From an uncultured Gammaproteobacteria bacterium (lineage in GTDB: Bacteria > Patescibacteriota > Microgenomatia > 2-02-FULL-39-11), in the NCBI GenBank assembly GCA_964362665.1, contig CAYIFB010000001.1:48308-112307 (forward strand): a stretch of 64,000 bases of DNA, given 5' to 3'. The translations under genes and the position numbers were made by a program. The notes below the pieces were generated by a model, which saw nothing but the letters and a program-made list of their open reading frames with translations, did not search any database and was not told the origin of the DNA. Shown here piece by piece: positions 2,171 to 36,316 of this stretch (position 1 is the first letter of the stretch; every line of letters starts with the position of its first letter).

Positions 2171-4355
2171 GTCCTGAAAGTATTGTAATATTTTTTCCTA
2201 ATTCAAAAGATCGAGACCGATAAACAAAAGTTACATTATGTTGGCCTTTCTCCAAAGGAACTCCAATAAAGGTTAAATTTACATTATAAATCGGGATTTT
2301 GACATTATCGTCATAAGCAGACCACCCGGGGTAATTGTTATTATTCCACACAAGTATTGTTGGTTCAAGTGCGCTAACAACTACTTTTACACTTTGGTCA
2401 TTAACGATCAGATAATCTAATTTTGAATTAGTTTCTCTTGCGCTCAATTTATTATTAAGATTTATAATTTTGTCCTCTATAGCTATTTTATTTCGATCAT
2501 TCGACTCATATTTACTTAAATACATAAAAAAATCTTGCAGGGTAGTGACGTCTTGAGTTTCAGAGGATAGATAAAAATTATCGAGCGGATTCTCTAATTC
2601 ATAAACCAAAATTGAAGAGGTAGATATTGTTGCGGGGGCATTTATGGTGGTGATTAACCTGATATCCTGATCTTTAATTGGATATCCGGAAATCAAATAT
2701 TTTACGCCGGCTAATTTAAAGGCATTTTTTATACTATTATTTAAAGCAGCAGAATTTTTTTCACCATCGATTAATATATTTTTGGCAATATCTGTATAAA
2801 TTGTGATTCTTCTCGGAAAAAGTCCTGTAGTACTGTTGAATTGAGGAATATCAAAAATAAGATTATAGTTCGGATGTAAATAGTTAGTGAAAAAAACATA
2901 CGGTTCGATGTTTGTCCATCCTTTGTGTAAAAAAATATCATTCCATTTGAGGGAACTCCTCAGAGTGACGATTTTGTTATTATTTCCTTTTATAATATCG
3001 AGGACTTGAGGCTCTGTAATCCAAAGAGAAGCTTTACTGACTGGCGGATAGCGGTATGAAAACATGAATTCATCCGTAACGATAATCATTAAAAAAAGAA
3101 AATATAAGATATACACAAATAAAACTTTTTTTCTTGATCTGAAATAAATGAAAATATTTTCCAAAGTGATGGCGGATAGATATGTAAGAGAAATTATGGT
3201 AAGGATGAGGTAACGTGAAGGAACTCTAAAAAAATTGAAAGGCGGAAATGTAAAAATAAGATATAAAGGAGAATATTTACCGGTGATAAAAAGCAAACTT
3301 ACCAGTAAAAGTATCACAAATAATAGTACCCGTCGTTTTTTTAAGTAAAAAAGGCTGAAAAAAGCCAAAATTAAAGGAAGTAGGCCTAAATACGCCGTAT
3401 TTTCCCAAAAGATTCCCCAATCTTCAGAAAATCCGGGATATGTGCCAAGACCCGGAGAGCCGAATAAATAAGGCTTAAGGAAAGTTAGAAGATGTTTTGG
3501 CGGATAAGGGAAGGCTGTAGAATTTTCGAAGCTCAGTCCCCCGCTATGGGTTGATAGTTTTACGAGTTCCAAGGTAGGCAACAGCTGTATAGCTGATAAT
3601 AGAATGGCAAACACAAAGGATGTACTAAGGATTAAGATGCGTCTGAATAAATATTTATCTCTAAATCCCTTATATATGAGAAACTCGTATAAAATTAAAA
3701 ATAGAATGACAATAAAAAGCGATATAAAAAAGATAGTGACATAGCCGGCAAAAAATTGTTCGGCGGTAAGTAGTGACAGGAAGCACATATTTCTTAAGCT
3801 CGGCCGCCGCCAGACCCTAAAACATGAAGCCCAAAGGAGAGGCGTCAATGAAACTGTTTGGAGAAGATTCAGATGATTCAGGTGAACACTGAAAAATCCG
3901 GAGAAGGTTAGTATGGTGCTGGCAAGACTTGATGTCAGCGGGGAAAACTTAAACATTCTGAATAAATAATATGTGCCAATCGCCAGCAATATATAGGACA
4001 AAACATAACTTAAATTATAAGCATAAATAAAAGGCAGAAATTTAAAAAGAAGAAGGTTCGGTAGGTAAAAAGTCCCTATCTGGCCTTCTGCAAGAAGTGG
4101 AAATCCATTGGCTATTTTGTTTGTCCAAAGAGGCCACGTATCGTTCTTCAACGACTGACTCAGAAAATTTTTTAAGGGAAGATTATAGTTTAAGACATCG
4201 CTTTCCCCGAAATCCGGAATCATAAAAATAGAAGGTTGAGGGAAAAACAATCTGAAGAAAAATACGACAATCAGGATTAACGGGACGCTAATCGGAAGAA
4301 TTTTATGTATGAAAATGCCGATACTTGACATGAAATTAGCACTTTTATTTTTCAT
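2067..4355 (-). CDS. Large polytopic membrane protein, YfhO-like (GT-C-like membrane glycosyltransferase family)
   Basis: 762 aa with about 12 TM segments. The N-terminal region (…WPLWTNKIANGFPLLAEGQIGTFYLPN…) resembles YfhO-family motifs. It overlaps the previous ORF convergently by ~100 nt, so one C-terminus may be over-extended. Confidence 0.45.
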   Translation of the reverse strand: MKNKSANFMSSIGIFIHKILPISVPLILIVVFFFRLFFPQPSIFMIPDFGESDVLNYNLPLKNFLSQSLKNDTWPLWTNKIANGFPLLAEGQIGTFYLPNLLLFKFLPFIYAYNLSYVLSYILLAIGTYYLFRMFKFSPLTSSLASTILTFSGFFSVHLNHLNLLQTVSLTPLLWASCFRVWRRPSLRNMCFLSLLTAEQFFAGYVTIFFISLFIVILFLILYEFLIYKGFRDKYLFRRILILSTSFVFAILLSAIQLLPTLELVKLSTHSGGLSFENSTAFPYPPKHLLTFLKPYLFGSPGLGTYPGFSEDWGIFWENTAYLGLLPLILAFFSLFYLKKRRVLLFVILLLVSLLFITGKYSPLYLIFTFPPFNFFRVPSRYLILTIISLTYLSAITLENIFIYFRSRKKVLFVYILYFLFLMIIVTDEFMFSYRYPPVSKASLWITEPQVLDIIKGNNNKIVTLRSSLKWNDIFLHKGWTNIEPYVFFTNYLHPNYNLIFDIPQFNSTTGLFPRRITIYTDIAKNILIDGEKNSAALNNSIKNAFKLAGVKYLISGYPIKDQDIRLITTINAPATISTSSILVYELENPLDNFYLSSETQDVTTLQDFFMYLSKYESNDRNKIAIEDKIINLNNKLSARETNSKLDYLIVNDQSVKVVVSALEPTILVWNNNNYPGWSAYDDNVKIPIYNVNLTFIGVPLEKGQHNVTFVYRSRSFELGKNITILSGLTIFLILLLDLVSTFQKGSGNTRPSPYFYNKLSN

Positions 4356-4446
4356 GATTATTCTTTATATGAGTTAGTTTAAATAACTAAATGAATTGTA
4401 TTATATAATAATTTAAGAACGATGGTTTATTGGAAAAACTGTTAAG

Positions 4447-5676
4447 ATGACTAAACACACGGGTTTGTTCATATTTATTATTATATTGTTTGTTTACCTT
4501 TTTTTTGCCGGCAGATTTAAATTTTCCTTCCCGAAAACCAACCGCGATTATTTTACCAGACTCTCTTATTCTTTTTTACAGGGAAGGTTAGATATACCGG
4601 ATCCCGGATATACTCCCAATGATTTATCCTATTACCATGGAAAGTACTATCTTTATTGGGGCCCTGTACCAGCAATGCTTCTCATGCCGATAATTTATTT
4701 ACTAGGTACAAATGTAAGCGATATATTGTATACCGTACTGTTTGGTTCGATAAATGCCCTACTGATTTACCTTTTATTTCTGGAATTTCAGATATTTAAT
4801 AAATTAATTATATCTAAAAGCATTATTTTACTATTAACACTTTGCTTTTCACTCGGGACAATTCATTTCTATTTATCTGTTCTTGGAACTGTTTGGTTTA
4901 CATCACAAATTCTTACTTTAACCTTATATATCATTTCTTTATTTTTTTTATTTAAACACCTGAATAAAAGAAACTATTCATATGCGTTTTTAAGTATCTT
5001 TTTTCTTGGTGCGAGTACTCTAGGAAAATATACTTTCTTGTTGTCATTTCCTCTCCATTTTGGACTTTTGTATAAATACAACAGATTATCCTATTTAAAT
5101 ATTGTTAAGCTAATAATGGTATTTCTCGTATTTATCGTCATGACGCTCATCTATAACTATTTTAGGTTTGGTTCAGTATTTAGTAACGGACTTACTTACA
5201 TGCAGGTACATTCCCGTTTTTTTCAAGATTTACAAAATCTCGGTTATTTTAACATTAATTACATTTTCAGGAATATTTATTATTTATTTCTAATCCCTCT
5301 CCAGTTTAGGATTCAAAAACCTTTTATCCTTCCTGATCCGAACGGAAATAGTATTTTCTACACTACACCTATTTTTATTTTACTTCTTTACGGGGCTTTT
5401 AAAAAATATTTTTATGCGAGAAAACAGATGTTTTATTATTTAGGTATTACTGTATTATTGATGCTGCTGCCAGTGCTTCTTTATTATGGCGGTGGTTGGT
5501 ATCAATGGGGTTACCGGTATGCGCTGGATGTCTATCCCCTGCTCTTTTTACTTCTTCTACTTATAATTAATAAATATAGTAATAAAGTTATCTTTACTTT
5601 AGTAACTTTATCAATACTGATTAATTTATACGGTACTCTGTGGATGATGGAGTTTGCCAAACATGCTTATTTCTGA
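4447..5676 (+). CDS. Polytopic membrane protein, GT39/ArnT/PMT-like glycosyltransferase
   Basis: 409 aa, multi-TM, with a conserved-looking loop YYHGKYYLYWGPVPAMLLMP. Family assignment by eye only. Confidence 0.4.
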   Translation: MTKHTGLFIFIIILFVYLFFAGRFKFSFPKTNRDYFTRLSYSFLQGRLDIPDPGYTPNDLSYYHGKYYLYWGPVPAMLLMPIIYLLGTNVSDILYTVLFGSINALLIYLLFLEFQIFNKLIISKSIILLLTLCFSLGTIHFYLSVLGTVWFTSQILTLTLYIISLFFLFKHLNKRNYSYAFLSIFFLGASTLGKYTFLLSFPLHFGLLYKYNRLSYLNIVKLIMVFLVFIVMTLIYNYFRFGSVFSNGLTYMQVHSRFFQDLQNLGYFNINYIFRNIYYLFLIPLQFRIQKPFILPDPNGNSIFYTTPIFILLLYGAFKKYFYARKQMFYYLGITVLLMLLPVLLYYGGGWYQWGYRYALDVYPLLFLLLLLIINKYSNKVIFTLVTLSILINLYGTLWMMEFAKHAYF

Positions 5677-6463
5677 CATATTTAATTATATGAATTTAAT
5701 CATTATATTTTTACTCGGTTTATCCATCGGGTCATTTCTCAACGTCCTTATCGACCGGTTGCCTGCAGGCGAATCCATTTGGATAGACAGGTCGCATTGT
5801 GATAGTTGCCGTAAAACCTTAAACTGGTATGATCTTATACCTGTCATATCATTTATCATTCTCCAAAGAAAATGCAGGAATTGCCATAAAAAGATCTCCT
5901 GGCAGTATCCTCTGGTGGAGGCAGCCACAGGACTCTTTTTCCTTTTTACATATGTATCGATGATTCGAATCACTGGTACAGATTTAACTGTTCCACACTT
6001 AATTTATTATTTAATACTTGTGGCTAGTTTAATAGCAATTTTTGTAACAGATTTGAAATACAGGATTATCCCCGATCAGATTCTGATTTTTCTGACTATT
6101 TTGACCGTGGTATACCAGTTTATTTATTTTCCTCAGTTTATTAAAGATAATCTTATCTCAGGAATTATCAGCTTGTTATTTTTTTTAATGCTGGTCATTA
6201 TTACCCGGGGCAAAGGCATGGGACTCGGGGACGTCAAACTGGCATTTGTCATGGGCCTGCTTCTTGGATTTCCTAAAATAATAGTCGCGCTTTACCTGTC
6301 TTTCTTGACAGGGGCAGTTGTTTCGCTGATACTTATATTGATTCATAAAAAATCCATGAAAAGTACTATCGCTTTTGGACCTTTTCTCGTATTTTCCACC
6401 CTGACGACGATCTTTTACGGCAATTATTTCTGGCAACTTTTCCAAAAGATTTTTACTTTATGA
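5654..6463 (+). CDS. pilD: Type IV prepilin leader peptidase (peptidase A24, PilD-like)
   Basis: N-terminal TM helix followed by the tetracysteine motif CDSCRKTL…CRNCHKKISWQYPLVE. The multi-TM A24 domain carries GDVKL. It sits directly upstream of 7 pilin genes. Confidence 0.85.
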   Translation: MPNMLISDIFNYMNLIIIFLLGLSIGSFLNVLIDRLPAGESIWIDRSHCDSCRKTLNWYDLIPVISFIILQRKCRNCHKKISWQYPLVEAATGLFFLFTYVSMIRITGTDLTVPHLIYYLILVASLIAIFVTDLKYRIIPDQILIFLTILTVVYQFIYFPQFIKDNLISGIISLLFFLMLVIITRGKGMGLGDVKLAFVMGLLLGFPKIIVALYLSFLTGAVVSLILILIHKKSMKSTIAFGPFLVFSTLTTIFYGNYFWQLFQKIFTL

Positions 6464-6936
6464 GAAAACGCTTAAGCATAAAAGGCAATCAATATAAATT
6501 AAATTCAGGCTTTACACTTCTGGAGCTTATAATTGTCATGGTGATTATTGCCATTCTTGCGTCTGCTATCTGGGGAAACTTTTTTACATCTCTCACCAAA
6601 TCCAGAGACTCTAAGAGGAAACAGGATTTGGATCTAATCGCCAAATCTTTGGATATTTATTATAACGATAATAAAACATACCCCACTTCCCTACCCGATC
6701 CCGGTAATCCTTTTTTTAATCCAGTGGTGACAGGAGTATTATATATGCAGAAAATTCCGGCAGATCCTTCGTATCCTGATGCGACTTACTGCTATCCGAC
6801 AATTGCTGAAGGTTCAAATGCCTTTAAATTATATGCAAAACTGGAAAATTCACTGGATTCAAAAATCATACCTACTGTCTCCTGTAATAATGTAAACTAT
6901 AATTACGGTATTTCAAGTTCCAATACTACGCCATGA
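6460..6936 (+). CDS. Type IV pilin / pseudopilin (prepilin-type N-terminal cleavage/methylation domain)
   Basis: Leader plus G|FTLLELIIVMVIIAILA class III signal peptide. ATGA overlap with pilD stop. Confidence 0.8.
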   Translation: MRKRLSIKGNQYKLNSGFTLLELIIVMVIIAILASAIWGNFFTSLTKSRDSKRKQDLDLIAKSLDIYYNDNKTYPTSLPDPGNPFFNPVVTGVLYMQKIPADPSYPDATYCYPTIAEGSNAFKLYAKLENSLDSKIIPTVSCNNVNYNYGISSSNTTP

Positions 6937-7427
6937 GAAATAAATATCAAATAAATAAGAACGGTTTTACCCTGGTTGAGCTTCTGGTCGTTATTGGAAT
7001 TATCACCATGATTACGGCACTTCTTTTTCCCAATTTTATGGGAGCAAGGCAAAGGGCGAGGGACAGCCAGAGAAAAACTGACTTGAAGCAAATTCAGGGA
7101 GCGGTTGAGCTTTATAAATTGGACCAAAATCCTCCGGCTTATCCCAGCGGCAGTTATTTTGCCACGACCATGTGCCGAAAATGTTGGAGCTCAGCAGGAA
7201 GCTCAGACACTTGTCCTAACGGCAGTAATGTTTACATGAACAAGTTTTCCTGCGATCCCGGAACTAATGCCAATTCACCATATTTATATAATCGCGACCT
7301 AAATGATACATTAAAATATACGCTCACGGCTTGTCTGGAAAATCTGGTTGATCCCGACCGTGATCCAACTCCGGTTGCCGCTTGTGTAACCCCGGGGTAT
7401 GCGAGTTATACTGTAAATGAACCATGA
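6933..7427 (+). CDS. Type IV pilin / pseudopilin
   Basis: KNGFTLVELLVVIGIITMI prepilin motif. Cys-rich C-terminal domain. ATGA coupling. Confidence 0.8.
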   Translation: MRNKYQINKNGFTLVELLVVIGIITMITALLFPNFMGARQRARDSQRKTDLKQIQGAVELYKLDQNPPAYPSGSYFATTMCRKCWSSAGSSDTCPNGSNVYMNKFSCDPGTNANSPYLYNRDLNDTLKYTLTACLENLVDPDRDPTPVAACVTPGYASYTVNEP

Positions 7428-7831
7428 ATAATAAATTGAAACAGGGATTTACACTAATGGAACTTCTAGTGGTGATTTCGATCATTGCCATACTTGTAAC
7501 CATCGGCTTGACCAGTTTTTCTACCGCACAAAAAAAAGCCAGAGATTCCAAAAGAAAAAGCGATATCAAAGAAGTGCAAAATTCTCTGGAACAGTATTAC
7601 AGCGTCTGCGGATCTCAATACCCCGTCCCCACAGATTTTTATGCGCAAGGAATTGTTTGCAGTTTACCGAGCTTAGCGATTATGCCGACAGTACCAACCG
7701 ATCCGAGAGGAACGCCGCCTTATTATTGCCCAACACCGGCAGCTACAAATTGCACATCAACTGGGTATCAAATTTGTGCAAGTCTTGAAAGTGAAACTCC
7801 GGCAGCATTTTGTGTATCTAATCAGCAATGA
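7424..7831 (+). CDS. Type IV pilin / pseudopilin
   Basis: KQGFTLMELLVVISIIAIL prepilin motif. Cys pairs in the C-terminal domain. Confidence 0.8.
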   Translation: MNNKLKQGFTLMELLVVISIIAILVTIGLTSFSTAQKKARDSKRKSDIKEVQNSLEQYYSVCGSQYPVPTDFYAQGIVCSLPSLAIMPTVPTDPRGTPPYYCPTPAATNCTSTGYQICASLESETPAAFCVSNQQ

Positions 7832-8298
7832 TTACAATATCCAATATCCAATATCCAATTTCCAATTCAGAAAAAATTATTAAATCTGAAAAGTCCTGTG
7901 GTTTTACCATGATAGAAATTCTGGTGACTGCTACGATCATAGGACTTTTGTCTACCATCGGTATTAGTGGTTTCCAGGCTATTACCAGAAGCGGCAGGGA
8001 TGCCCTGCGAAAATCAGATCTGGAGCAAATAAGGTCAGCTTTAGAAATTTATAAGTCTGAAAACCAGAAATATCCCACTGTTTCTTCATGCAACGCAGTT
8101 TTGACGACTGATTATATCAATCCTTACCCTACAGATCCCAGTAAAACAACCTACAAATATTGTTACGTTCCAGCAGCGGAACCTGCTTTAACCTATAAAT
8201 TATGTGCTCATTTGGAGAATGGTGATTCCATTACGGATAATTGCGATAGCGGATCTAATTGTATAGGTAATTGCAATTATCAGTTGACAAACCCTTGA
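7828..8298 (+). CDS. Type IV pilin / pseudopilin with unusually long leader
   Basis: …KSCGFTMIEILVTATIIGLL prepilin motif preceded by a ~26-aa leader. The 5' end contains a 7-bp tandem repeat (CCAATAT)n. Confidence 0.7.
   Translation: MITISNIQYPISNSEKIIKSEKSCGFTMIEILVTATIIGLLSTIGISGFQAITRSGRDALRKSDLEQIRSALEIYKSENQKYPTVSSCNAVLTTDYINPYPTDPSKTTYKYCYVPAAEPALTYKLCAHLENGDSITDNCDSGSNCIGNCNYQLTNP
7833..7867 (+). repeat. Imperfect heptanucleotide tandem repeat (CCAATAT x3, then CCAATTT, CCAATTC) inside the 5' leader-coding part of a pilin gene
   Basis: Read directly: acaatat ccaatat ccaatat ccaattt ccaattc. Confidence 0.6.
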
Positions 8299-8816
8299 TG
8301 AAAATTTCAAAATTTTCCGGTTATACTCTCATCGAAGTTTTAATAAGTGTGGCGGTAATTTTTATAATTGTCAGCGTCACTTTTGCAGGTTATGCCCGCT
8401 TGAATCAAAGACAGACTTTGATTTCCGCCGGACAGACGATGAAAAATATACTGCGTGACGCACAATCCCGCGCCTATACAAGTGAGGTGGATTGCAGTGT
8501 CTGTAACTGCAGTGTTGGTTCTTCGATAAATTCGGTAGGATGGTATGCAGATTTTTCTCCCTCTGAACAAAAGATTTATGGAAATTGCGGAGATAATAAA
8601 GATTTTTCTGCTAAAAACTTTGGATTACCCGATGGAATTTCGATAAATGCTTCACCGGTGACTAAAATTTTATTCCGCAGTAGACCCTTGGGAGTTGATA
8701 ATCCAGTGACTGTCTGTCTGACATTAAATTATTTAACCAATAATTATTATAAAATTACCGTTGGACCAAGCGGGGAAATATCGGACAGCGCAGGTTTGGT
8801 GGATACATGTCCTTAA
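8271..8816 (+). CDS. Type IV pilin / pseudopilin
   Basis: FSGYTLIEVLISVAVIFIIV prepilin motif. Confidence 0.75.
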   Translation: MQLSVDKPLMKISKFSGYTLIEVLISVAVIFIIVSVTFAGYARLNQRQTLISAGQTMKNILRDAQSRAYTSEVDCSVCNCSVGSSINSVGWYADFSPSEQKIYGNCGDNKDFSAKNFGLPDGISINASPVTKILFRSRPLGVDNPVTVCLTLNYLTNNYYKITVGPSGEISDSAGLVDTCP

Positions 8817-8828
8817 AAAACTGTCAAA

Positions 8829-9311
8829 ATGAAAAAAATTTCCACTTATGCTATTTCTTTAAGTTCCGGACAGACTATTATTGAAGTTGTGATCGCTTTA
8901 TCCCTCATCATACTTTTTTTGTCAGGGGTGGTCATTGTGGAGCTCATTTCCATAAAAAATGTCCAGTATTCCCAGAATAAAAGTATTGCGACCTCACTTG
9001 CCCGACAGCAGATAGAGAGAGCCAGGGTTATCCGCGATTCTGTCGGAATCGGTGCCTTGGACACTTGTATGAATAATTGTTTCATCAATAATAATTTGAC
9101 TCCCGTACCTGTCAGTCCGACGGGCGTATATGGTCAGAACTTGAAACTGACCGCGGTTACTGAGTTTGATTGTCCGATTCCTGATGTCACAATTACCCCG
9201 ATGCCAACCTCATATAAAGCAGTTTCTACCGTGAACTGGGGGTCTGGAACAACCAACGTTACGCCTGCACCGGAACTTAGCGTCTCATCATGTATTACAG
9301 ACTGGAGATAG
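8829..9311 (+). CDS. Pilin-like protein (degenerate prepilin motif)
   Basis: SGQTIIEVVIALSLIILF hydrophobic N-terminus resembling the pilin methylation domain. Part of the pilin operon. Confidence 0.55.
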   Translation: MKKISTYAISLSSGQTIIEVVIALSLIILFLSGVVIVELISIKNVQYSQNKSIATSLARQQIERARVIRDSVGIGALDTCMNNCFINNNLTPVPVSPTGVYGQNLKLTAVTEFDCPIPDVTITPMPTSYKAVSTVNWGSGTTNVTPAPELSVSSCITDWR

Positions 9312-9312
9312 T

Positions 9313-9846
9313 ATGCGAAAATTTCACATAAAAAAATTTGGCTTTTCCATGATAGAACTTTTGGTGGTGGTGGCTCTGATTGGAATTATCGGCACGATTA
9401 CCACGCAGGTTTTTATCCTGGCACTCCAGACACAGGTGAAAAGTGAAATCATCAAGGAGGTCAAACAAAACGGCGATTACGCTTTGACGGTGATGGAATC
9501 TATGGTCAGAAATTCTACAGACATTCTTGCCGCTTCCTGTAACGAGACATCTCAACAGCTTTCCATCCAGAATGCCGACGGATATACTACAATCTTTGAT
9601 TGTACAGATGCCAATATATCATCCATCAGCGGTAGTCTGGAGCCACTTCCTACCGGGGCTCCTTTAACTAATTCCAAGGTAAAAGTTTCTGCTTGCACGT
9701 TTCGAGTCATCTGCCCTACCCCGCCGATCAACCCCAAATATGTCTATATCGAGTATACCGTCAGCCAGGCAGGGGCAGGGACAGGCCCCAAGGATACATC
9801 AAGCCTGAATTACCAGACCACGGTTTCTCTGAGGAATTATCAGTAG
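9313..9846 (+). CDS. Type IV pilin / pseudopilin (last gene of the array)
   Basis: KKFGFSMIELLVVVALIGIIGTI prepilin motif. Its last 102 nt are duplicated downstream at 10786-10887. Confidence 0.8.
   Translation: MRKFHIKKFGFSMIELLVVVALIGIIGTITTQVFILALQTQVKSEIIKEVKQNGDYALTVMESMVRNSTDILAASCNETSQQLSIQNADGYTTIFDCTDANISSISGSLEPLPTGAPLTNSKVKVSACTFRVICPTPPINPKYVYIEYTVSQAGAGTGPKDTSSLNYQTTVSLRNYQ
9744..9845 (+). repeat. Left copy of a perfect 102-bp direct repeat (3' end of the pilin gene)
   Basis: The identical 102-nt string ctatatcgagtataccgtcagccagg…gaggaattatcagta recurs at 10786-10887. The copies differ only at the next base (TAG vs TAA stop). Confidence 0.9.
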
Positions 9847-9848
9847 AA

Positions 9849-10565
9849 TTATTTCGAGACCTTTTTTTTGCCAAGTACTGCTGCATTTTTACGATAAAAT
9901 TGTTTCAAGTGATCGAGGGTGAGAGGTATAATCATTTTTGGCAGTTCCTTAAAAGTTTCGACAGTAAGATAGTCTGCAGATAGTATCCATTGGTTCGTTT
10001 CAAGCCGGAATTTAATTCTGCACCCTTCCATCAGATCCCAGACAGTAAATTTTTTCAGTAAAAAATAATAATCAACAAAATCTTTTACTGTTGCTCGTTG
10101 TTGAATAGTTGCAAATTTATTAATCGCGATATCAAGTAAACTATCAATAGCAAGTCCATTATAATCAATACCTTTCTCAACACGTTTTCCATAGTATTTA
10201 GAAAAATCGACTTTTAATTCGTATTGCGGAGAGAATCGCAGCAAACATTGATATAAAGAATCAAATGGAGATTTAACTTTAAATGTAAAATGATGCTTTT
10301 CACCTTGTTTTATTAACCACTGGAAAATAAATGGAATATCCAATGGTTCTTCTGTGAAGAAATCAAGATCTTCTGAATAGCGGTGATGAAGATAAAATGC
10401 ACTTAACGCAGTTCCTCCGGTAAAATAAAATTTTTTCCGGAAATACCCATCTCTGCTTACTTCATCCAATATGTTTTTTTGATATTTGGTGAGGATTTGT
10501 ACTTTCCCCATATTAAAAGTTCCAATAATAGTTTGCACATAGGAAATAGATGAAGTTTGCCCCAA
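9849..10565 (-). CDS. Nucleotidyltransferase, AbiEii/AbiGii-toxin-like (DUF1814-type). The real start is probably the internal ATG at 10511.
   Basis: Motif FYFTGGTALSAFYLHHRYSEDLDFF (GGTAL…DLD nucleotidyltransferase signature). Paralog of the 33343-33990 gene. Confidence 0.6.
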   Translation of the reverse strand: MGQTSSISYVQTIIGTFNMGKVQILTKYQKNILDEVSRDGYFRKKFYFTGGTALSAFYLHHRYSEDLDFFTEEPLDIPFIFQWLIKQGEKHHFTFKVKSPFDSLYQCLLRFSPQYELKVDFSKYYGKRVEKGIDYNGLAIDSLLDIAINKFATIQQRATVKDFVDYYFLLKKFTVWDLMEGCRIKFRLETNQWILSADYLTVETFKELPKMIIPLTLDHLKQFYRKNAAVLGKKKVSK

Positions 10566-10741
10566 TTTTTTTTAACCTTAGATAAGGAAATTTTCTCTCC
10601 CTTATCCGGGCCATAGTTTATCATCCTTTCCAGGATAAGCAGTCGGCCGCTGGCTGTCTTTTTCAGCTCCTTTATATCGTAATCCCAGATTAGTGCCATA
10701 TAGTGAAATTGTATCAGAGATGTGCTGTTTTGACAACTCAA
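10457..10741 (-). CDS. Small partner protein of the nucleotidyltransferase module (putative antitoxin-like). The likely start is the internal ATG at ~10699.
   Basis: Homologous to the 33149-33412 ORF (LIWDYDIKELKK / LNWNVDEKRFIK; RMINYG / QLINYG; KVKKNWGKL / EVKKAWPMI; LLELLIWGKY / LIEYILWEKLY). Overlaps the downstream nucleotidyltransferase gene in a different frame. Confidence 0.5.
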   Translation of the reverse strand: MSCQNSTSLIQFHYMALIWDYDIKELKKTASGRLLILERMINYGPDKGEKISLSKVKKNWGKLHLFPMCKLLLELLIWGKYKSSPNIKKTYWMK

Positions 10742-10785
10742 ATAATCTAACTTAATCTTCTACCTTGTAGAAGTTTAAAATGTTT

Positions 10786-10887
10786 CTATATCGAGTATAC
10801 CGTCAGCCAGGCAGGGGCAGGGACAGGCCCCAAGGATACATCAAGCCTGAATTACCAGACCACGGTTTCTCTGAGGAATTATCAGTA
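10786..10887 (+). repeat. Right copy of the 102-bp direct repeat. It encodes an orphan pilin C-terminal fragment (…YIEYTVSQAGAGTGPKDTSSLNYQTTVSLRNYQ*).
   Basis: Perfect identity to 9744-9845. Confidence 0.9.
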
Positions 10888-10935
10888 AATAGTCCGATTT
10901 GATTAAATAATCAAAGTATAATATACTATAGGCTT

Positions 10936-13900
10936 ATGCCTATAGAAACGGGTGTAAGTTTTGCGTTAAAGTCACTGGAAAGCCGTGAAGGGAGATCTAT
11001 CACAGCTGATGCCGTGTTAGCAGAGAAAAACCGCCTACTAAAGGTAGAAGGGGTAAATCCAGATTATCGAGGTGAAATACAAAGTGATAATGGTGAATAT
11101 TCATTTACAGATCCTCAGAAAATTACAGAAACTATCGAAGATTTAGTTTCTACTATTAATGCATATTCTAAGATATACCGCGATAATCATTCAAGAACAT
11201 CATTCGTCAGATTAAATGCCGCAGTAGTTGCCTTGGCTGAGATTCGGATTCTCGGACCAAAAACCCTCTACAGCTCTCAAAAACAACAGGAGGAAGGACA
11301 AGTCCGGAGCGTAGGAATCCAGAAAGAACAGGTTGAAGCCGCATTGGCAATTAAATCAATGGACTCAGCAGAAGTTCCAAGTTCTCAAGGTAAAAGCAAT
11401 ACCGATATTCCGATCGCCGCCGTCGCGCGCGCCTGCCTAACAGGAGAACGGGTCCATATTATGGTTCGTGATCCGCAGGCGAAAAGAAGAGACGCTGATA
11501 ATTTGAGGCGGCTGACGTCAGCTTTGAATTTCAATCTTGGAGTGATAGACAGGTCAGAACAAAATGCACAGCCAAAAAAAAGAATAAAAGAATTGGTATT
11601 TATGAGTGATGTGATAGATTTTGCCGCAGGTCTCAGCCAGAGTGAAAAGGAAGAATTCAAAAGACAGCGAAGGAAAGAAATAGATCAGCTGATAAAAGAA
11701 GTTAATTTTTCGCTCATGGCTGACGAGGATCAATCACCAGTTATAGTCGATGATAAAGCTCAACAAGATCCTGATATCATTATCGGCGATGACAAAGATT
11801 TTGTGTTCACCTCGATGACAGATAAACGTAAATTCGTCTGGGGTGAGAAAAAGACATGCGTGATTTGCGATGAAGGTGATCTTCCTTGGACTAAGGGAAG
11901 CAGCTATGAACAGGAGGATGAGGGTTTGTCTCCCCTTTCAGGATATCTGCCCGAATGGATTACATCCTGTGTGGTTGATGAGGTTTGTACTACCATGAGG
12001 AAGGACGGAAAAATCACTTCTGATGCCAATAATCAGCTTGATTTTGTCGATACTCTTGGCGACGAAACTTTGACAGAATATGAAAAACAGGTCAGACTCA
12101 GATTGGAGCTAGTTGCGAAAGACGGCACATTACAGAATCGCTACATGCAAATTTTAAGGAATAAAATAGCGGGTGAGTTTGAAGGGTTGATGAAAACAAT
12201 TCCTGTCCAAAAATACTCTAAAAAGCTTCGGGAAAGAAAGGCAAAATATTTTTTTACCTATGACAGCATGAGAAAACTTGTCAAAAAATACACCTATCAG
12301 GACGTATCAGCCCCAGCCGAATCTGAAAAATTGGATATTCTCCATCCTGCCGACCCCATCGCTTTTTATGATCATGCCTGGTTGACCGCTCAAGAGCTAA
12401 CTACAGGGCAGAACTATTCCCGCACTAATCAGGAAATTGTCATTATTGATCAGGAGACCGGACATCCCCTGCCCACCCATCAGTATTCCGGTTTGGTGGA
12501 TATGGCTGTCGATGTGAAGGAAGGAATCTGCAGTCTCAGATCCAGAACAGATGCTATCCGTGACAGGACAGGTTTTCAGATGTTTTTGCAGAGGAATTAC
12601 GGTAAAAGGCGTATATCTCTCGTTTCAGCTACTCTTGACCATATCCGCGATGAAGTGCAAGAATTTACGGGCGGAAAAGTGATAGATGTCGGTTATTGGA
12701 TAGGCCGTGAAATGTCGATTCCCCGGGTTGAAATATCAGAAGATTTTGGAATGGCCAGAAATAGATTACTGGAACTCATTCAGGAAGCTTCAATAGCTGG
12801 AAGACCGGTGGAAATTGTCTGTGACGATGATGAAGAGTTGGGAGTTTTAAAACAATTTTTTGAAGAATGGAATAACGAAGCAGAAAAATATCATGTAAAT
12901 GTAGTTACATCAAGAAGCGGTTTAGATCATGAAGAAATAGTGTTCGGTCTGGCTGGACAGCTAAACACCCTTACTTTAACTAATCCCCGCGGGGGCAGGA
13001 TGGTTGATATCAAGTCCTCCCCGGAAACCAATAATGCAGGCGGATTACTGTTGATTGTCTGGGGAGCTCTTAAAAATAAGGCGGTATTAAAGCAGGTATT
13101 AGCCCGTACTGCCAGAACTGGAGCTCCGGGAGAATCCCGCTGGATGGTTTATAAATATGGTGGAAAAGCGGCTCTGGAAAATAATCACACCGTGAAAAGG
13201 TACCCGAAAAACATTGAAGCATTAGCGTTACTACAAGATGGTCAAAGGTTGGATTATGACTATAGTTTGCTGGAGAGCATCCATCAGCGGAATAATCTGG
13301 AAGGCCAGACCTTGAGGCTTTTAACCTATGCTTATGATGAATTGAGATTCTCCATGTATAGTGAGGCCCGTCAGAGCCTAGAGCAAGCGATCGGAGACAT
13401 TGCTACACCGGGTTATATCAATGAATATATTAAAATAAGGTGGAACGATATGATAGATTTTATCGCCGATGATTACATTTCACGCTTATCAAGATACAGG
13501 ATGGACTCTATCGGTGATTTGTCAGTTGCCCGGGGATTGGTGATGGGTGAAACTATTCTGAGGCGGATGGCCGATAATTATTCAGGCATAGTATCGATTG
13601 ATACCAAAGATCTATATATCCGACACCCTGTAAGCGGTCGCGATCATTTAATTTCCACAAGCCACCGAAAGCGTTTATTACCGGATAGAGCCACTTTTTT
13701 AAGGTTTAAAGATGTTAGTGTTGTTGATACATCCGGACAGACACATTTCTTGGGAGAAATGCCTCAAGAAGACTCCGATACGAGTATTAGCGCTGGTATA
13801 TATTTTCCACAAAGTCCGCATAAGCTTTATATCCTGACAAGATCAGTAAAGCCTCTTTCCGGCTCGCAGGCCAAAGCAAGTTCTCGCGCTGGATACAGTC

Positions 13901-14070
13901 TAAGAGTTATGTCTTTTGACGACAAAGACCGGTTTGATGGAGACAAAGTTTTCACTGTTTCAGAGTCAGACATAGAGGAATTATTAGGGCATGCTTTCTA
14001 TCCACAAGATGCTCTCAAACAAAAAGCATTATTTAGCCAACTCAGGAAAGAGGGTTTACTTCCTGCTTGA
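10936..14070 (+). CDS. Highly divergent SecA-family paralog (SecA-like DEAD-motor fold) with apparently degenerate ATPase motifs
   Basis: By-eye alignment to SecA across several blocks: [21 protein letters not shown] aligns with [53 protein letters not shown] aligns with [40 protein letters not shown]…EF aligns with LAGMTGTA…EEF. [14 protein letters not shown]…[14 protein letters not shown] aligns with GRPVLVGT…[48 protein letters not shown] aligns with [35 protein letters not shown]. The Walker A region reads SSQGKS and the DEVD-box region reads FMSD. GC content is higher than in flanking DNA. Confidence 0.5.
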   Translation: [1044 protein letters not shown]

Positions 14071-30660: not shown

Positions 30661-32010
30661 ATGCAAAAGAAGTATTTTTATCTCGGGCTGATTTTATTTT
30701 TTTTAATTACCTACCTCTCTCCCGGCAAAGTCATCTATTTCAGTGCGTATCTCGTCAGCACTTTTTTTTTCTATTTGGCGACCAAAAAAATTACCGAGAG
30801 TTTGATTTATTCTCTGATATTATCTTTATTTTTTGATTCTAGTATTGGAGCGAGTCTGTTTGCTATGCAGCCTCCCGAATGGAATTTGGGATCGGGTTAT
30901 GCGATTACACCGACTACATTAATATTACTCTCATTAATACCTTTTTCATTTAACAAAACATTCAGTAAGTTAAAAGCGCCGGATATAATAATTGCGATAT
31001 TTTATTGTATTAGTGTTTTTAATGTTTTCCTATTCCCCTATCCCAATTCCTTTTTCGGTTTAATCGGAATTAGTGAGTTTGTACTTTTATATTATATTTT
31101 AAGGATACATGTGAAAATTGAGCAGTTTGATTTTATAAAAATTATCCTTCTTAGTCTTTTGTGTTTTCAGATAACGATTGCAACAATACAGATTGTCAGA
31201 GGTACTTCCGCCGGATTTTTAGCTGAATCATCAAATCTAGAGCGCCCATACGGATATACGGCCAGCGAAGATGTAAATATTTTCCGTGTACCGGGAACCT
31301 TCGGACATCCGAATTTTCTGGCTTCATTTCTTCTGTTGGGAGTTTCATTTGTATTATTTAGTTCCCCTAGTAGTATTTTATATCTAGGATTGGGTGCATT
31401 AGATTTGGTGGTATTAATCTTTACTTCCAGCCGTGCAGCCTGGTTTATCTTTATGCTTATTATTGCTTTTTGGATTTGGTATCAGTTAAAAATTCTAAAA
31501 AAATCGGATAAAATAAGAACCACTTTAACTATATTTATTTTAATTATTGTTTTATTAATTCCTTTTATTATTACCCGCCTCAACACATTACCGCAGGCAT
31601 TTGATCCAAATGGGTCTGTAGATGTGCGCTATCAACTTAATAATGAAGCAATTAACATCATTTCCAAAAATCCAATAACCGGTGTCGGATTAAATAGAGC
31701 GATAGAATTTTACAGTAATTTTTTTTCGCCGGATGCCCTTCTTAGTATTATTGATGGTAGTTTTTATAAAATACATAATACTATTTTGGAAATTAGCACG
31801 GAGATAGGGGTTTTTGGAGGAATTATATTTTTAGCATTTTTCTTTACCATTTTTAAAACCGGGCTGAAATATATTCATGAAAAAAATAATTTTAAAATAG
31901 CTGCAACGATGGGACTTTTTGGAGTATTTTGTATTTCACTTTTTAATCCTTTCTTTCACACCCCACAAATGCGCTATCTTTTCCTCCTCTCCGCGATGAT
32001 TCTGGCGTGA
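30661..32010 (+). CDS. O-antigen ligase/polymerase family membrane protein (Wzy_C-like)
   Basis: About 10 TM helices with a large periplasmic loop (…RVPGTFGHPNFLASFLLLG…) typical of the O-antigen ligase family. Its last ~70 nt are re-used downstream in two partial copies. Confidence 0.6.
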   Translation: MQKKYFYLGLILFFLITYLSPGKVIYFSAYLVSTFFFYLATKKITESLIYSLILSLFFDSSIGASLFAMQPPEWNLGSGYAITPTTLILLSLIPFSFNKTFSKLKAPDIIIAIFYCISVFNVFLFPYPNSFFGLIGISEFVLLYYILRIHVKIEQFDFIKIILLSLLCFQITIATIQIVRGTSAGFLAESSNLERPYGYTASEDVNIFRVPGTFGHPNFLASFLLLGVSFVLFSSPSSILYLGLGALDLVVLIFTSSRAAWFIFMLIIAFWIWYQLKILKKSDKIRTTLTIFILIIVLLIPFIITRLNTLPQAFDPNGSVDVRYQLNNEAINIISKNPITGVGLNRAIEFYSNFFSPDALLSIIDGSFYKIHNTILEISTEIGVFGGIIFLAFFFTIFKTGLKYIHEKNNFKIAATMGLFGVFCISLFNPFFHTPQMRYLFLLSAMILA

Positions 32011-32533: not shown

Positions 32534-32574
32534 GAAATTCATATCCCTTCTTGCTGATCAACCAAATGAGGTAC

Positions 32575-32606
32575 TTTTTCCTCCTCTCCGCGATGATTCT
32601 GGCGTG
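32575..32606 (+). repeat. Second copy (3' portion, 32 nt identical) of the Wzy-like gene 3' end. A diverged upstream part begins at ~32538.
   Basis: ttttcctcctctccgcgatgattctggcgtga is identical to 31979-32010. Confidence 0.85.
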
Positions 32607-32608
32607 AA

Positions 32609-33019
32609 TTGATATGTTTTGAAGTAGTTGATTTAACTTATTTCACATGCCAGAATATACTTATGATAACAAAAAATGATCTAGGACAATTAAGGAAAGG
32701 TTTAGGGAAAGAAATTGGTGATTCGGCAAATAAACTGAAAGAAGAATTAAAAGCGGAAATCAATGCTTCAGCAAAAAGTCTCAGAAAAGAATTCAAAGAG
32801 GATATCGAAACCGCAGTAGTTCAAGTTATTAATGCAGTTATCAAACACACTGCCTCAAAAGAGGAGTTAAAGAGAGTTAAGGGAGAATTGAGTGAAAAGA
32901 TTGATACTATAAAATCAGAATTAAGTTCAGAAATAAAAGCCGATACTCCTACCCCGCAGGAATTTACAAGTCACGAAAAGAGAATAAGTAAATTGGAATC
33001 TGCTGTGTTTCCTTCTTAA
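32609..33019 (+). CDS. Hypothetical coiled-coil protein. The probable start is the internal ATG at ~32663.
   Basis: Lys/Glu-rich heptad-like sequence. No recognisable domain. Bounded by copies 2 and 3 of the Wzy 3'-end repeat. Confidence 0.35.
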   Translation: MICFEVVDLTYFTCQNILMITKNDLGQLRKGLGKEIGDSANKLKEELKAEINASAKSLRKEFKEDIETAVVQVINAVIKHTASKEELKRVKGELSEKIDTIKSELSSEIKADTPTPQEFTSHEKRISKLESAVFPS

Positions 33020-33066
33020 ATCCTTCTTTCACACCCCACAAATGCGCTATCTTTTCCTCCTCTCCA
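33019..33066 (+). repeat. Third copy (5' portion, ~47 nt with 1 indel) of the Wzy-like gene 3' end
   Basis: aatccttctttcacaccccacaaatgcgctatcttttcctcctctcc matches 31948-31995. Confidence 0.85.
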
Positions 33067-33148
33067 CTCTTATCTTAAGCCAGGAATGTACATTACCAGT
33101 ACGAACGTATAGTCATTTACCGGGAGAAAGTGATATACTTGGCTAATT

Positions 33149-33412
33149 ATGCTCAACTGGAATGTTGATGAGAAAAGGTTTATAAAAGAAGACCCGGAGG
33201 GGTATAAACGCTGGAGGATCGAACAACTGATAAATTACGGTCTGGATGGAGAAAAACTGGACAAGGATGAGGTAAAAAAAGCCTGGCCCATGATAAAAGA
33301 GAACATTGATCCGTATAAGCGCAGGCTTATAGAATATATCTTATGGGAAAAACTATACTTACTCCCACTCAACGGAAATTTCTGGAGTGCATCCAGAATT
33401 ACGAAGAGATAA
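33149..33412 (+). CDS. Small partner protein of the nucleotidyltransferase module (putative antitoxin-like). Paralog of 10457-10741.
   Basis: See the alignment under the 10457-10741 feature. It overlaps the downstream gene by 70 nt in a different frame, as in the first copy. Confidence 0.5.
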   Translation: MLNWNVDEKRFIKEDPEGYKRWRIEQLINYGLDGEKLDKDEVKKAWPMIKENIDPYKRRLIEYILWEKLYLLPLNGNFWSASRITKR

Positions 33413-33990
33413 CCCGCTGGTTTTATCTGACCGGTGGAACTGCTCTTTCGGAAGATATTGATCTGTTTTCTACAAGTGAAGTAGATGATAAGACTATTGA
33501 TAAATTTTTGGATGATATTCGTCCACAACTGCAAATTACTTCAATAAAAAAAGACCATATTTCAGGATTGTTCTTATATAAATTAACTTTTTCAAACGGA
33601 GAAACATTGAAAGTTGATTTTAATGAATATGCATTTGAACCAATTGAAAAAAGTACTAAAAATTTCGGGAAATTACAGGTAGACAGTTTCTACGATATAG
33701 CAGTAAATAAAGCCTATACCATATCGGGACGCTTTAAATCTCGTGATTTTATCGATCTCTATTTTATCCTCATTCGAGAGGAATTCTCTTTTGAACAAAT
33801 TCTTTCGCGTGTACCAGATAAATTTGGAGTGCAGATCGATTCAGTATTTTATGCAAGCCAACTTCTTCGGGCAGGTGATTTGCCAAAAGATTATCCCCCT
33901 ATGCTTGTCCCTTTTGAATTTGATGATATGGTGAAGTTTTTTGTGAAAGAAGCAAAACGATTGGGAAAAAAGGCTTTTAAGAACCCTTGA
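33343..33990 (+). CDS. Nucleotidyltransferase, AbiEii/AbiGii-toxin-like. Paralog of 9849-10565.
   Basis: WFYLTGGTALSEDIDLFS nucleotidyltransferase motif. Similar length and architecture to the first copy. Confidence 0.6.
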   Translation: MGKTILTPTQRKFLECIQNYEEITRWFYLTGGTALSEDIDLFSTSEVDDKTIDKFLDDIRPQLQITSIKKDHISGLFLYKLTFSNGETLKVDFNEYAFEPIEKSTKNFGKLQVDSFYDIAVNKAYTISGRFKSRDFIDLYFILIREEFSFEQILSRVPDKFGVQIDSVFYASQLLRAGDLPKDYPPMLVPFEFDDMVKFFVKEAKRLGKKAFKNP

Positions 33991-34014
33991 TTTCCGATCT
34001 TATTATATTTATAC
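33986..34014 (+). promoter_or_regulatory. Sigma70-like promoter candidate (TTGATT-17-TATACT) for the cassette-1 exported protein and peptide
   Basis: Read from the sequence immediately after the nucleotidyltransferase stop. The downstream ATG is at 34029. Confidence 0.3.
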
Positions 34015-34532
34015 TGAAGTTAGCGACTATGTATCGAACCCTAAAAATTCTATTTGTAATTTTGTTGGTTCTGACGATTACAGAAGCAGGATATTATATT
34101 TACGTATTAAAATATCCTATTAAACCAGCCCAAAATAACCCCTCATTAGCTCCAAGTATATCTTCCGATCAAAAAATTGACAGGAGTGCATATCTTTTTG
34201 ACCAGATTACAGCCTCTGATCCTTATCAGTTCGTAAAACACTTCGGTATGAATGATAATCAGAATTTATATTTAATTCTTGAGCAAAAAGGAATTGCACA
34301 GATAGATAAATCCGATGACGGTAAAGACATATATCTCACCATACAAAACGATCAGCATAAAAAAATCGTAAGCATTAATATAGTCAATTCCCTGAAAATT
34401 ACGAAGATAGTAAAGGGTGAAAAAACTCCGATTAGCAAGGACCAAATTAAAACCGGAGACAATATTCTTTATACCCTGAAAGGTGATTTAGTTGACCAGA
34501 AAAAAAGCAGTGGAGAAATTACAATCTTATGA
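33987..34532 (+). CDS. Cassette 1: membrane-anchored/exported protein. The probable start is the ATG at 34029 (MYRTLKILF…).
   Basis: N-terminal TM/signal anchor LKILFVILLVLTITEAGYYIYVL, then PIKPAQNNPSLAPSISSDQKI. The first ~50 aa are near-identical, at DNA level too, to the 36317 paralog. The C-terminal domains differ. Confidence 0.5.
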   Translation: MISDLIIFILKLATMYRTLKILFVILLVLTITEAGYYIYVLKYPIKPAQNNPSLAPSISSDQKIDRSAYLFDQITASDPYQFVKHFGMNDNQNLYLILEQKGIAQIDKSDDGKDIYLTIQNDQHKKIVSINIVNSLKITKIVKGEKTPISKDQIKTGDNILYTLKGDLVDQKKSSGEITIL

Positions 34533-34729
34533 GAAAAAATCCCTTTGCTCCTTATTGTAAGCCCAAAATTAATACGAAAAAGATCAACTTTCTTGTTATG
34601 TTTGGGCATTCATTTCCTGATGAGAACGGTTATCTAGCACAAGTTTGTGATTGTGGAGCGCCATGCTACGGCAATGTTATAGGGAGACCCTGTTATTGTC
34701 TGAATGGGACGGGGGGATGTTCTAGCTAG
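34529..34729 (+). CDS. Cassette 1: Cys-rich small peptide (candidate precursor or secreted disulfide-rich peptide), translationally coupled (ATGA) to the upstream gene
   Basis: 66 aa. Leader-like N-terminus KPKINTKKINFLVMF shared with the 36879 paralog. Core VCDCGAPCYGNVIGRPCYCLNGTGGCSS has 6 Cys, is Gly-rich and ends in C-terminal Ser-Ser. Confidence 0.5.
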   Translation: MRKNPFAPYCKPKINTKKINFLVMFGHSFPDENGYLAQVCDCGAPCYGNVIGRPCYCLNGTGGCSS

Positions 34730-34731
34730 GT

Positions 34732-35547: not shown

Positions 35548-35745
35548 GATTGAGAAGATATAAAAAATACAGTATTATCCTCTTGATATATGAATAAAAT
35601 CATCAGGATGATTAGATTTAAGCGTAAATTCTGTATTAAAGCAACTGGTAACAGCATGCTGCCTCTTCTTTTCTCGGGAGACGTATTATACCTAAAAAAA
35701 TTCACTTAAAGACGTCTGAAAAAACCTATATTCCCCTTTTTCTTT

Positions 35746-36228
35746 TTATATAATATTTAAGTCATCACCCAGCGGATGGTATTCGTCTTTGAGTAAATTT
35801 AAAATAGTGGTTTTTCCTGCACCTGAATTACCCAAGAAAACATAAGCTTTATGATTGATACATACTGAAGATGCATGCAGAAGAAATCCTCCTTCTTTTG
35901 CCAAAATGTCTTCGATAGCGTCGCGAAAAAGCAGGTTAAACTCCCCCAGATTCACGTGATAGTAAATTTCGCGATTATTGGAATCTATTTTTCTGCATGC
36001 CTTAAGGTAAATAAATTCATTTTCCCGGTAAAAGATACTGGGTTCACGAAAATCCACAAAGTGGATGATATGTAGAGGATTTTTTTTAGATATCGAAAAA
36101 TTCTTCAAATTAAAGATGACGTTTTCGATAAATTTCTCCCGATGCAGGATAAAAATGCTTTCATGAAACCTGAATTCCAGCACCATCCCTGCAATTTTGA
36201 AAAAATATGAAGAAGTCCCCTTGTTCAT
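35746..36228 (-). pseudogene. Truncated HprK-like kinase paralog (P-loop present, C-terminal ~110 aa missing or frameshifted)
   Basis: GFLLHASSVCINHKAYVFLGNSGAGKTTILNL, then a stop after …PLGDDLNII. A shifted frame just downstream translates …GEYRFFQTS…, which resembles the …YYGFQSP… block of the full-length paralogs. Confidence 0.5.
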
Positions 36229-36269
36229 AATTGTTAATGATACATCAAACGATAGTTTTTCATCAAAAC

Positions 36270-36298: not shown

Positions 36299-36316
36299 TA
36301 ATAATAGATAGACATT

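Follow-up and report, generated by a model that had tools for sequence, protein, structure and literature searches.

A putative toxin–antitoxin cassette between a pilin gene and a SecA-like gene in a Patescibacteria genome, probably inserted with long target duplication

The stretch of DNA analysed here (64,000 nt of contig CAYIFB010000001.1, hereafter the window) carries a type IV pilus operon whose last pilin-like gene is followed by a cassette of two small genes on the opposite strand and then by a gene encoding a SecA-like protein (Table 1; loci other than the window's are referred to by L numbers). The pilin-like open reading frame (ORF) possesses a prepilin N-terminal methylation motif (PF07963, E 6.8e-5; TIGR02532, E 1e-5). 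On either side of the cassette lies one copy of an exact direct repeat of 103 nt, with a start-to-start spacing of 1042 nt. An earlier note on this DNA had given the perfect duplication as 102 bp starting at 9744; the exact duplication is real, with a true length of 103 nt and a start at 9743. The pilin ORF is kept whole by the upstream copy, which supplies the last 33 complete codons and the first two letters (TA) of the stop; a G, with which the insert begins, completes that stop, changing it from TAA to TAG. The downstream copy has no gene body upstream of it, the sole nearby start codon is out of the pilin frame, and it runs on into ancestral intergenic sequence. In this the sequence agrees with the earlier description of one copy ending an intact pilin gene (TAG) and the other forming an orphan fragment with TAA just outside, and the opposite-strand segment of ~940 bp said to hold a small ORF and an AbiEii-like gene was found with both genes and a length of 939 nt. 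No further copy of the repeat is present in the window on either strand, so that with two copies it is not a multi-copy sequence there. The cassette has a G+C content of 33.5%, as against 45.5% for the pilin gene.

Table 1. Coordinates of features at the junction of the pilin operon and the SecA-like gene (window numbering)
Feature	Position	Strand	Remarks
Last pilin-like gene of the operon, intact, 177 aa	9313..9846	+	TAG stop at 9844-9846
Direct repeat copy 1	9743..9845		Intact pilin gene end: last 101 nt plus TA of the stop
Inserted cassette, 939 nt	9846..10784	-	Absent from relatives' empty sites (L087, L089/L090)
AbiEii-type nucleotidyltransferase, putative toxin, 220 aa	9849..10511	-	PF08843; PADLOC AbiEii
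Conserved small partner ORF, putative antitoxin, 79 aa	10457..10696	-	Overlaps the start of the nucleotidyltransferase gene by 55 nt
Cassette promoter-like site	10708..10736	-	TTGTCA, 17 nt, TACAAT; TG before the -10 hexamer
7-bp perfect palindrome, CTTCTAC ctt GTAGAAG	10757..10773		11 nt inside the promoter-side end of the cassette
Direct repeat copy 2	10785..10887		Orphan pilin 3' fragment, then A (giving TAA)
Ancestral intergenic region, with SecA-like promoter-like site	10888..10935	+	Conserved in empty sites (L087, L089)
SecA-like gene, 1044 aa, to the right of the target site	10936..14070	+	Weak SecA matches, below cut-offs

The state of the site before insertion can be seen in relatives. 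SecA-like orthologues lie beside the pilin operon in L087, L088 and L089 (88, 83 and 60% identity, respectively), and orthologues of the pilin-like gene are the last pilin genes in all three. In L087, from Hainich well H32, and in L089/L090, from the Gottesmanbacteria assembly GCA_001779235.1, 47 nt separate the stop codon of the last pilin gene (TAA in L087, TGA in L089) from the start of the SecA-like gene: this is the empty site, with the pilin gene running directly on to the SecA-like gene, that the earlier note had proposed looking for. These empty sites hold a single copy of the repeat, with identities of 83/103 in L087 and 83/100 in L089 (the target copy of L088 scores 90/103). In L087 homology to the pilin gene extends leftward (79% at the nucleotide level) and homology to the SecA-like gene rightward (89%), and the 47 nt after the stop codon are identical to window 10888-10935; in L089 they are conserved. 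Relative to this ancestral state the window has gained 1,042 nt, comprising the cassette and a second copy of the 103-nt target. The single-copy empty sites in relatives therefore show that insertion with target duplication took place, and the insertion is evidently recent. This bears out the proposal that a toxin–antitoxin-like module inserted recently at the end of the pilin operon, with the repeat as its duplicated target; an identical arrangement with diverged repeats in all relatives had been named as the mark of an ancient, immobile locus, and the relatives have the empty site instead. We consider it likely that a two-gene cassette, complete from promoter to stop, entered between the pilin stop codon and the SecA-like promoter by insertion with long target duplication. 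The promoter-like site of the SecA-like gene (TTGATT, 17 nt, TATACT at 10899-10927, located by a promoter scan) is untouched by the insertion.

The filled site is held by three public assemblies of one groundwater site, Hainich well H51. A SPAdes contig of 11,751 nt from ERZ1292641 corresponds to window 3325-10839, taking in the pilin body, the repeat and the cassette, and ends 55 nt into copy 2. A second SPAdes contig, of 1,484 nt and from a different H51 sample (ERZ1292627), corresponds to window 11274-9791, taking in the SecA-like gene, the repeat and the cassette, and ends 55 nt into copy 1. In addition, a Logan contig (ERR3858130) spans 9223-10787, and the exact pilin protein is recorded on filled contigs only. 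An assembly artefact, which the earlier note had named as a possible source of the duplication, is unlikely because both junctions are present in independent assemblies that cross each repeat copy into unique sequence on both sides. The artefact would consist of an empty chromosome and a separate 1-kb circle, or a segment from another strain, mis-joined through the shared 103 nt. In its favour, the de Bruijn graph has the same topology in both situations, the contigs of the two assemblies stop exactly one k-mer length (the 55 nt) inside a repeat copy and coverage is low, at ~5x. Two SPAdes assemblies nevertheless crossed the full 103-nt repeat on the integrated path (pilin-repeat-cassette and cassette-repeat-SecA), no pilin-repeat-SecA contig with the window's allele is on record, and relatives display the same architecture with diverged repeats, which an assembler could not collapse. 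We give such a mis-join hardly any credence.

The same site has been used a second time. In L088, the 83% relative, a plus-oriented, decayed insert (2056-2553) occupies the same few nucleotides; it comprises a true DUF6922 gene and a truncated nucleotidyltransferase gene, and no long duplication or repeat remnant was detected around it, at most a repeated TAA. As the L088 cassette is a different one, the site was therefore hit independently twice. The simplest reason for this is that the space tolerant of insertion, from the stop codon to the -35 hexamer, amounts to only ~10 nt.

The nucleotidyltransferase gene converges on the pilin gene, its stop codon lying 2 nt from the pilin stop. The protein matches PF08843 (AbiEii) with an E-value of 2.7e-13 and 50.8 bits (cut-off 22.5), the best stretch covering residues 23-58 only, and the PADLOC AbiEii model with an E-value of 3.7e-15 over residues 14-156. 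All residues that are invariant in a 24-sequence family alignment are present, for example GGTAL and the S46, D48 and D50 of SEDLDF. For the 79-aa partner no Pfam, NCBIfam or PADLOC family reached threshold; five of 12 members of the partner family display sub-threshold similarity to DUF6922 (best E 0.0024), and a profile comparison of the partner with the DUF6922 protein of L088 was not significant. The cassette promoter-like site is the top consensus match of the region (10/12) and both of its hexamers are kept in L006, the nearest relative (80% identity at the amino acid level, 79% at the nucleotide level over 10701-9839). The palindrome upstream of it is a possible operator, a candidate by its sequence and position; it is not kept in L006, where a tandem TGTGGTAACTA (two copies) is found at the same position. 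In common with AbiE/MenT-type systems (AbiEii, DUF1814, PF08843), the cassette has a match to the toxin model, a two-gene overlapping operon, an upstream partner and a promoter of its own. Unlike AbiE, the partner here is 66-80 aa long with weak DUF6922 similarity, and toxicity, neutralisation and phage defence are predicted at most.

Homologues of the nucleotidyltransferase number 1,638, those with names being mostly from Patescibacteria, and 160 loci with relatives were fetched from genomes and metagenomes. In 153 of 161 loci the nucleotidyltransferase gene is immediately preceded by a small ORF of 60-109 aa, and alignment identifies the small partner as a conserved family. Because the small ORF is conserved upstream across loci, we take the pair to be a conserved two-gene operon of the toxin–antitoxin type. 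A bona fide DUF6922 and AbiEii pair is found in L009.

Flanking repeats recur across this family. Tight brackets with repeats of at least 30 nt were found in eight of 127 other usable loci compared with 9 of 6,126 shifted controls (0.15%; binomial p 2.5e-11), and an independent local-alignment test returned 7/73 loci against 1/217 shifted and 0/73 reverse-complement controls (1/290 in total; Fisher p 7e-5). Looser brackets, with an extra gene included, occur at further loci. With these looser cases counted, the bracketing repeats are 37-145 nt long and 80-99% identical, have abrupt ends and differ in sequence from locus to locus. At seven or more loci, one of the two copies coincides with the 3' end of a long neighbouring gene, such as guaA in L023 or a gene for a 499-aa protein in L067. 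The inserts are of uniform size (893-985 nt), but their 5' boundary varies, lying ~30 to 115 nt ahead of the small ORF. Synonymous and non-synonymous differences between the repeat copies of L023 and L067, compared by eye, comprise too few sites to separate models.

Is there any sign of a mobility enzyme or of the ends on which one might act? The earlier note had seen no integrase or transposase in the window, and family searches agree, with no integrase or transposase family among window ORFs of at least 80 aa. No tRNA or structured-RNA target was found, Rfam having no match at the site. End-to-end scores for terminal inverted repeats equal those of shuffled controls in all nine inserts, none are present at the ends of the window insert, and there is no conserved terminus or core sequence among the family inserts.

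These results bear first on site-specific integration, in which the 3' end of the target gene would have formed part of the attachment site of a small integrative element or of a remnant that was moved in trans. The combination of an intact gene and an orphan 3' fragment resembles the geometry of such elements. Integrase-mediated elements that sit at gene 3' ends and bring a replacement end include e14 in icd and islands in tRNA genes, and islands and prophages at gene 3' ends resemble the window in leaving the target gene intact and an orphan copy of its 3' end displaced, the two forming direct repeats around the insert. Moreover, guaA is an integration target for genomic islands; the relative L023 sits at the guaA 3' end, and the guaA end of L174 carries toxin–antitoxin genes too. 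Unlike gene-3'-end islands, however, the locus has no integrase, no element-borne attachment sequence, the host allele at each locus and an insert of less than 1 kb. No integrase is encoded in the 64-kb window and none was seen by eye in the relative loci inspected, where no systematic integrase screen was made. The repeats differ in both sequence and length at each locus, with no conserved core or element-borne attachment sequence, and no tRNA is present. Both copies in the window are of the local allele (103/103), with the nearest empty-site relatives differing by 13-20%, whereas an element-borne copy normally differs. As the repeats are unrelated across loci, neither an end nor a core sequence is conserved and a recombinase is lacking in the window, the suggestion of site-specific recombination at a conserved gene end, also made in the earlier note, finds no support, and we regard site-specific integration in general as highly improbable.

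Much the same holds for a non-autonomous transposon moved by a transposase whose target duplications are long and variable, like those of IS1634 and IS1549. Duplications of this kind are documented for both elements, ranging from 8 to 514 bp (PMC2266710), and the cassette is compact and of uniform size. Long variable duplications are what the two have in common; IS1634 and IS1549 are autonomous DDE elements with inverted repeats, and here there are none of these. The nine inserts have neither terminal inverted repeats nor conserved ends, the window encodes no DDE transposase, and we hold a transposon of this type to be a very poor prospect.

A Y1/RAYT transposase was also considered as the mobiliser and rejected, being found near only 4-5 of the ~160 loci and absent from the window. 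An IS200/IS605-RAYT (Y1 HUH) element can be set aside because a target duplication is present here and that family makes none. Y1/RAYT genes do adjoin the cassette in L006 and L094, together with REP-like hairpins. The repeat in L006 resembles the N-terminus of RAYT at ~20 of 26 positions by eye, which is probably a coincidence.

A mode that does combine long duplications with a lack of mobility genes is known from restriction–modification gene complexes, for which insertion with long target duplication was reportedly described by Nobusato and colleagues in 2000 (Gene 259:99). The complexes have long variable target duplications of 46-423 bp and no mobility genes, some of the duplications overlap gene 3' ends, and most of the insertions are in naturally competent species (Furuta, Abe and Kobayashi 2010, PMC2853133). 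The pilin locus has each of the features used as criteria by Furuta et al. (2010): repeats of more than 30 bp (103 nt, exact), both of which align to a single empty-site sequence with flanking homology on both sides (L087); an insert of less than 20 kb that holds a complete system (939 nt) and no mobility gene; and a repeat that is not multi-copy (two copies within 64 kb). As with the restriction–modification insertions, there is a small addiction-type unit, no mobility gene, long locus-specific repeats and a single copy at the empty site. The cassette differs from them in its cargo, a toxin–antitoxin-like pair with a nucleotidyltransferase toxin rather than a DNA-cutting enzyme, in its Patescibacteria host, in the recurrence of the signature within one cassette family and in the series of gene-end copies that separates cassettes at another locus of the window (see below). 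A later review mentions insertion with long target duplication for restriction–modification systems only (PMC3874152), and our literature searches, the coverage of which was incomplete, found nothing on toxin–antitoxin cassettes with long target duplication or on DUF6922. As far as was found, then, the mode is a known one, seen here with a new cargo and in a new phylum, and without a toxin–antitoxin precedent.

The remaining alternative, and the main idea of the earlier note, is Campbell-type entry, in which a circle of ~1,042 bp, or a linear fragment, carrying the cassette and the pilin 3' end would have been integrated by a RecA-mediated single crossover, the donor being a sister cell or a strain that already carried the cassette at the pilin locus. 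The geometry is exactly that of a single-crossover product, the copies are identical at 103/103 positions and the repeat-cassette-repeat unit is itself a substrate for release of a circle.

A second locus in the window also bears on this route. The last 65 nt of a Wzy_C/O-antigen-ligase-like gene (30661-32010) are present three times, at 31946-32010, 32543-32607 and 33019-33083. The copies separate a HicB-like and HicA pair (PF07927, E 5e-16), a 136-aa coiled-coil ORF and a degenerate cassette of small ORF and AbiEii gene, and a 33.6-kb contig of another assembly has the same order. All 12 differences between copies 1 and 2 fall within their first 33 nt, the remaining 32 nt being the same in both (Fisher p 1.4e-4); copies 1 and 3 match at 46 of the first 47 positions, beyond which they are unrelated. 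Both orphan copies keep an open reading frame, with conservative changes. Because a crossover inside an identical block between diverged alleles would leave such a mosaic, the pattern, like the open frames of the orphans, fits Campbell-type entry, and it favours Campbell-type reintegration at this second locus, where recombination appears to have taken place at the Wzy gene-end copy. A search for a donor allele among other genomic contexts of the HicA cassette returned the same strain only. The Wzy locus has in common with integron arrays a series of small cassettes, many of them toxin–antitoxin modules, separated by repeats and lying downstream of a fixed point. Unlike in integrons, the separator is the 3' end of a neighbouring gene and not attC, and there is neither IntI nor attI, so that this is a resemblance only. 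In L179 (2121-2811), which is from another H51 sample, the gene calls split the second nucleotidyltransferase gene of the window (33343-33990) into ORFs of 107 and 136 aa. In part of the population, this older cassette at the Wzy locus appears to be turning into a pseudogene.

At the pilin gene, Campbell-type entry presupposes an earlier repeat-cassette-repeat unit at the same gene. It cannot have been the origin of the arrangement because it cannot give a cassette its first copy of each new target, and it gives no account of family cassettes bracketed by many unrelated local sequences. No circle, tandem or empty allele with the window's pilin sequence was seen in public records, and RecA would have had only 103 bp of homology to work on, a short substrate. 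As an explanation of the locus we therefore think Campbell-type entry unlikely; it is a plausible secondary route, and is possibly the proximate origin of the perfect copy in the window.

How might insertion with long target duplication have taken place? The first event would have been illegitimate, the ends of a DNA fragment being joined 103 bp apart either on sister duplexes or across a filled-in staggered break; alternatively, it may have been a replicative template switch out of the target and back into it. Microhomology could have aided this step. The sequence TACTGAT stands in the same register in the window and in L006, 3 nt beyond the nucleotidyltransferase stop codon, and in the window the repeat opens with these 7 nt. 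Selection would then remove insertions that damage a neighbour, and the position at a gene end would follow, because only insertions that spare both neighbours survive. Thereafter, toxin addiction would oppose loss of the cassette. The two 103-bp repeats would allow RecA-mediated excision of a 1,042-bp circle with restoration of the empty site, and the excised circle could re-enter by a single crossover in any cell with that pilin allele. A host process is favoured as the source of the duplication because the nucleotidyltransferase toxin offers no DNA-breaking activity. Competence in Patescibacteria is an assumption, and the only competence-related sign in the window is the type IV pilus operon.

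Several points weigh against insertion of an addiction module with long target duplication. A clean empty site was obtained for no locus other than that of the window. A tight bracket is found in only ~6% of family loci, a share that rises when wider spans are counted; most insertions either lack a duplication, as does L088, or have lost it, and no donor copy of the window's cassette was found. The register of TACTGAT hints that the window junction formed at microhomology, and this comes from the sequence of one relative with 79% identity. Identity of the two copies would be equally expected from recent Campbell-type entry with the same allele or from gene conversion. The putative assignment of the cassette as a toxin–antitoxin or addiction module is drawn from family membership and operon structure, and the function is to that extent predicted. 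The AbiEi regulator has roughly 200-300 aa and a winged helix. Here the upstream partner, at 79 aa, is not an AbiEi antitoxin with its winged-helix N-terminus and C-terminal domain, and for this reason the cassette is not a canonical AbiEi/AbiEii system. Lastly, the mechanism of duplication is one that we infer; even in the restriction–modification precedent, where double-strand breakage by the restriction–modification system was tentatively proposed as the driver, the mechanism of the mode is unexplained (PMC2853133).

A number of observations on individual members of the family, and on the rest of the window, can be added. In L023 (1724-2716) the cassette is accompanied by a 50-nt duplication of the guaA end with four differences, three of them synonymous and one a stop. 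In L174 (1605-3770), a 78% relative, a different AbiEii pair and a PIN/MazE pair lie directly after guaA. The 3' end of guaA, which encodes GMP synthase, is thus a recurrent landing place (L023, L174); the closest relatives of the L023 guaA end carry other toxin–antitoxin genes or have non-syntenic neighbours. Segments bracketed by direct repeats across the fetched loci include AbiEii (four), DUF433/DUF5615 (two), PIN (two), MazE and ParE, a richness in toxin–antitoxin genes that is not normalised, all loci having been selected for carrying such a module. L094 (2805-5470, Hainich well H41) holds a 2.6-kb island made up of a RAYT/Y1 transposase gene, a cassette of small ORF and nucleotidyltransferase gene, and a MazEF-like pair. 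The island is bracketed by a 48-nt duplicate (85% identity) of the 3' end of a gene for an 826-aa surface protein, and its units are separated by three copies of the REP-like hairpin GGCCTTTTCGAGGTTSAACCTCGAAAAGGCC. Many nucleotidyltransferase homologues lie on contigs of ~0.9-1.5 kb, close to the size of the cassette; this may reflect the short median contig of the collection, or would be expected if assemblies break at the flanking repeats.

The SecA-like protein matches SecA_DEAD with an E-value of 4e-4 and the NCBIfam SecA and SecA2 models with 30-49 bits against cut-offs of more than 700. Its gene directly follows the pilin operon in Gottesmanbacteria-like genomes as a conserved arrangement, and the protein may be a divergent ATPase tied to the pilus system. 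No database record of the exact protein was found, and a 100%-identical fragment (P0122) covers only 89% of it. Two independent assemblies break near window position ~11274, where the 1,484-nt contig ends; together with the partial fragment, this hints at variation between strains or at a repeat within the SecA-like gene.

Elsewhere in the window, a tandem segmental duplication (33987-37085) holds two membrane-protein paralogues (33987-34532 and 36317-36877) with a 163-nt 5' repeat at 88% identity. Each paralogue is followed by an ORF for a Cys-rich peptide of 66-68 aa, minus-strand ScmC-like P-loop genes lie nearby, and NTP_transf_5/Peptidase_S24 (37899-39254) and PqqD-like (39283-39573) genes follow downstream. 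Together with these followers, the region looks like a peptide-modification cluster of the RiPP type (ribosomally synthesised and post-translationally modified peptides). A further ORF (42252-45614, 1120 aa) contains 12-nt periodic arrays rich in ACN and CCN at 43014-43688, predicted to encode Thr/Pro-rich repeats, and has a weak ice-binding-like match at its C-terminus; it probably encodes a surface protein with a low-complexity linker.

The movement of chromosomal toxin–antitoxin modules that lack a mobility gene has so far been poorly explained. That the same signature surrounds the nucleotidyltransferase cassette across its family speaks for a process that belongs to the host (joining, replication or transformation) and not to the cargo. 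The family offers many natural replicates for work on the mechanism: one perfect and evidently recent insertion, older ones that have diverged, and a site that was occupied on two occasions. In genome annotation, orphan fragments of gene ends beside small cassettes should be read as insertion scars, and for the streamlined genomes of Patescibacteria, the finding indicates how addiction modules are gained without disruption of tightly packed neighbours. Going further, the toxin–antitoxin cassettes of Patescibacteria (AbiEii/DUF6922-like, HicAB, DUF433/DUF5615, PIN and ParE) might together form an integrase-free cassette system, an idea that we put forward as speculative and ourselves find doubtful. 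In such a system a rare illegitimate insertion would duplicate tens to 150 bp of a host gene 3' end; the gene-end copy would then be a recombination site at which RecA and natural transformation could excise, exchange and stack cassettes, producing arrays of cassettes between gene-end copies downstream of a fixed host gene. If true, this would be an analogue of the integron in which the end of a host gene replaces attC and attI and the cassettes are retained by addiction.

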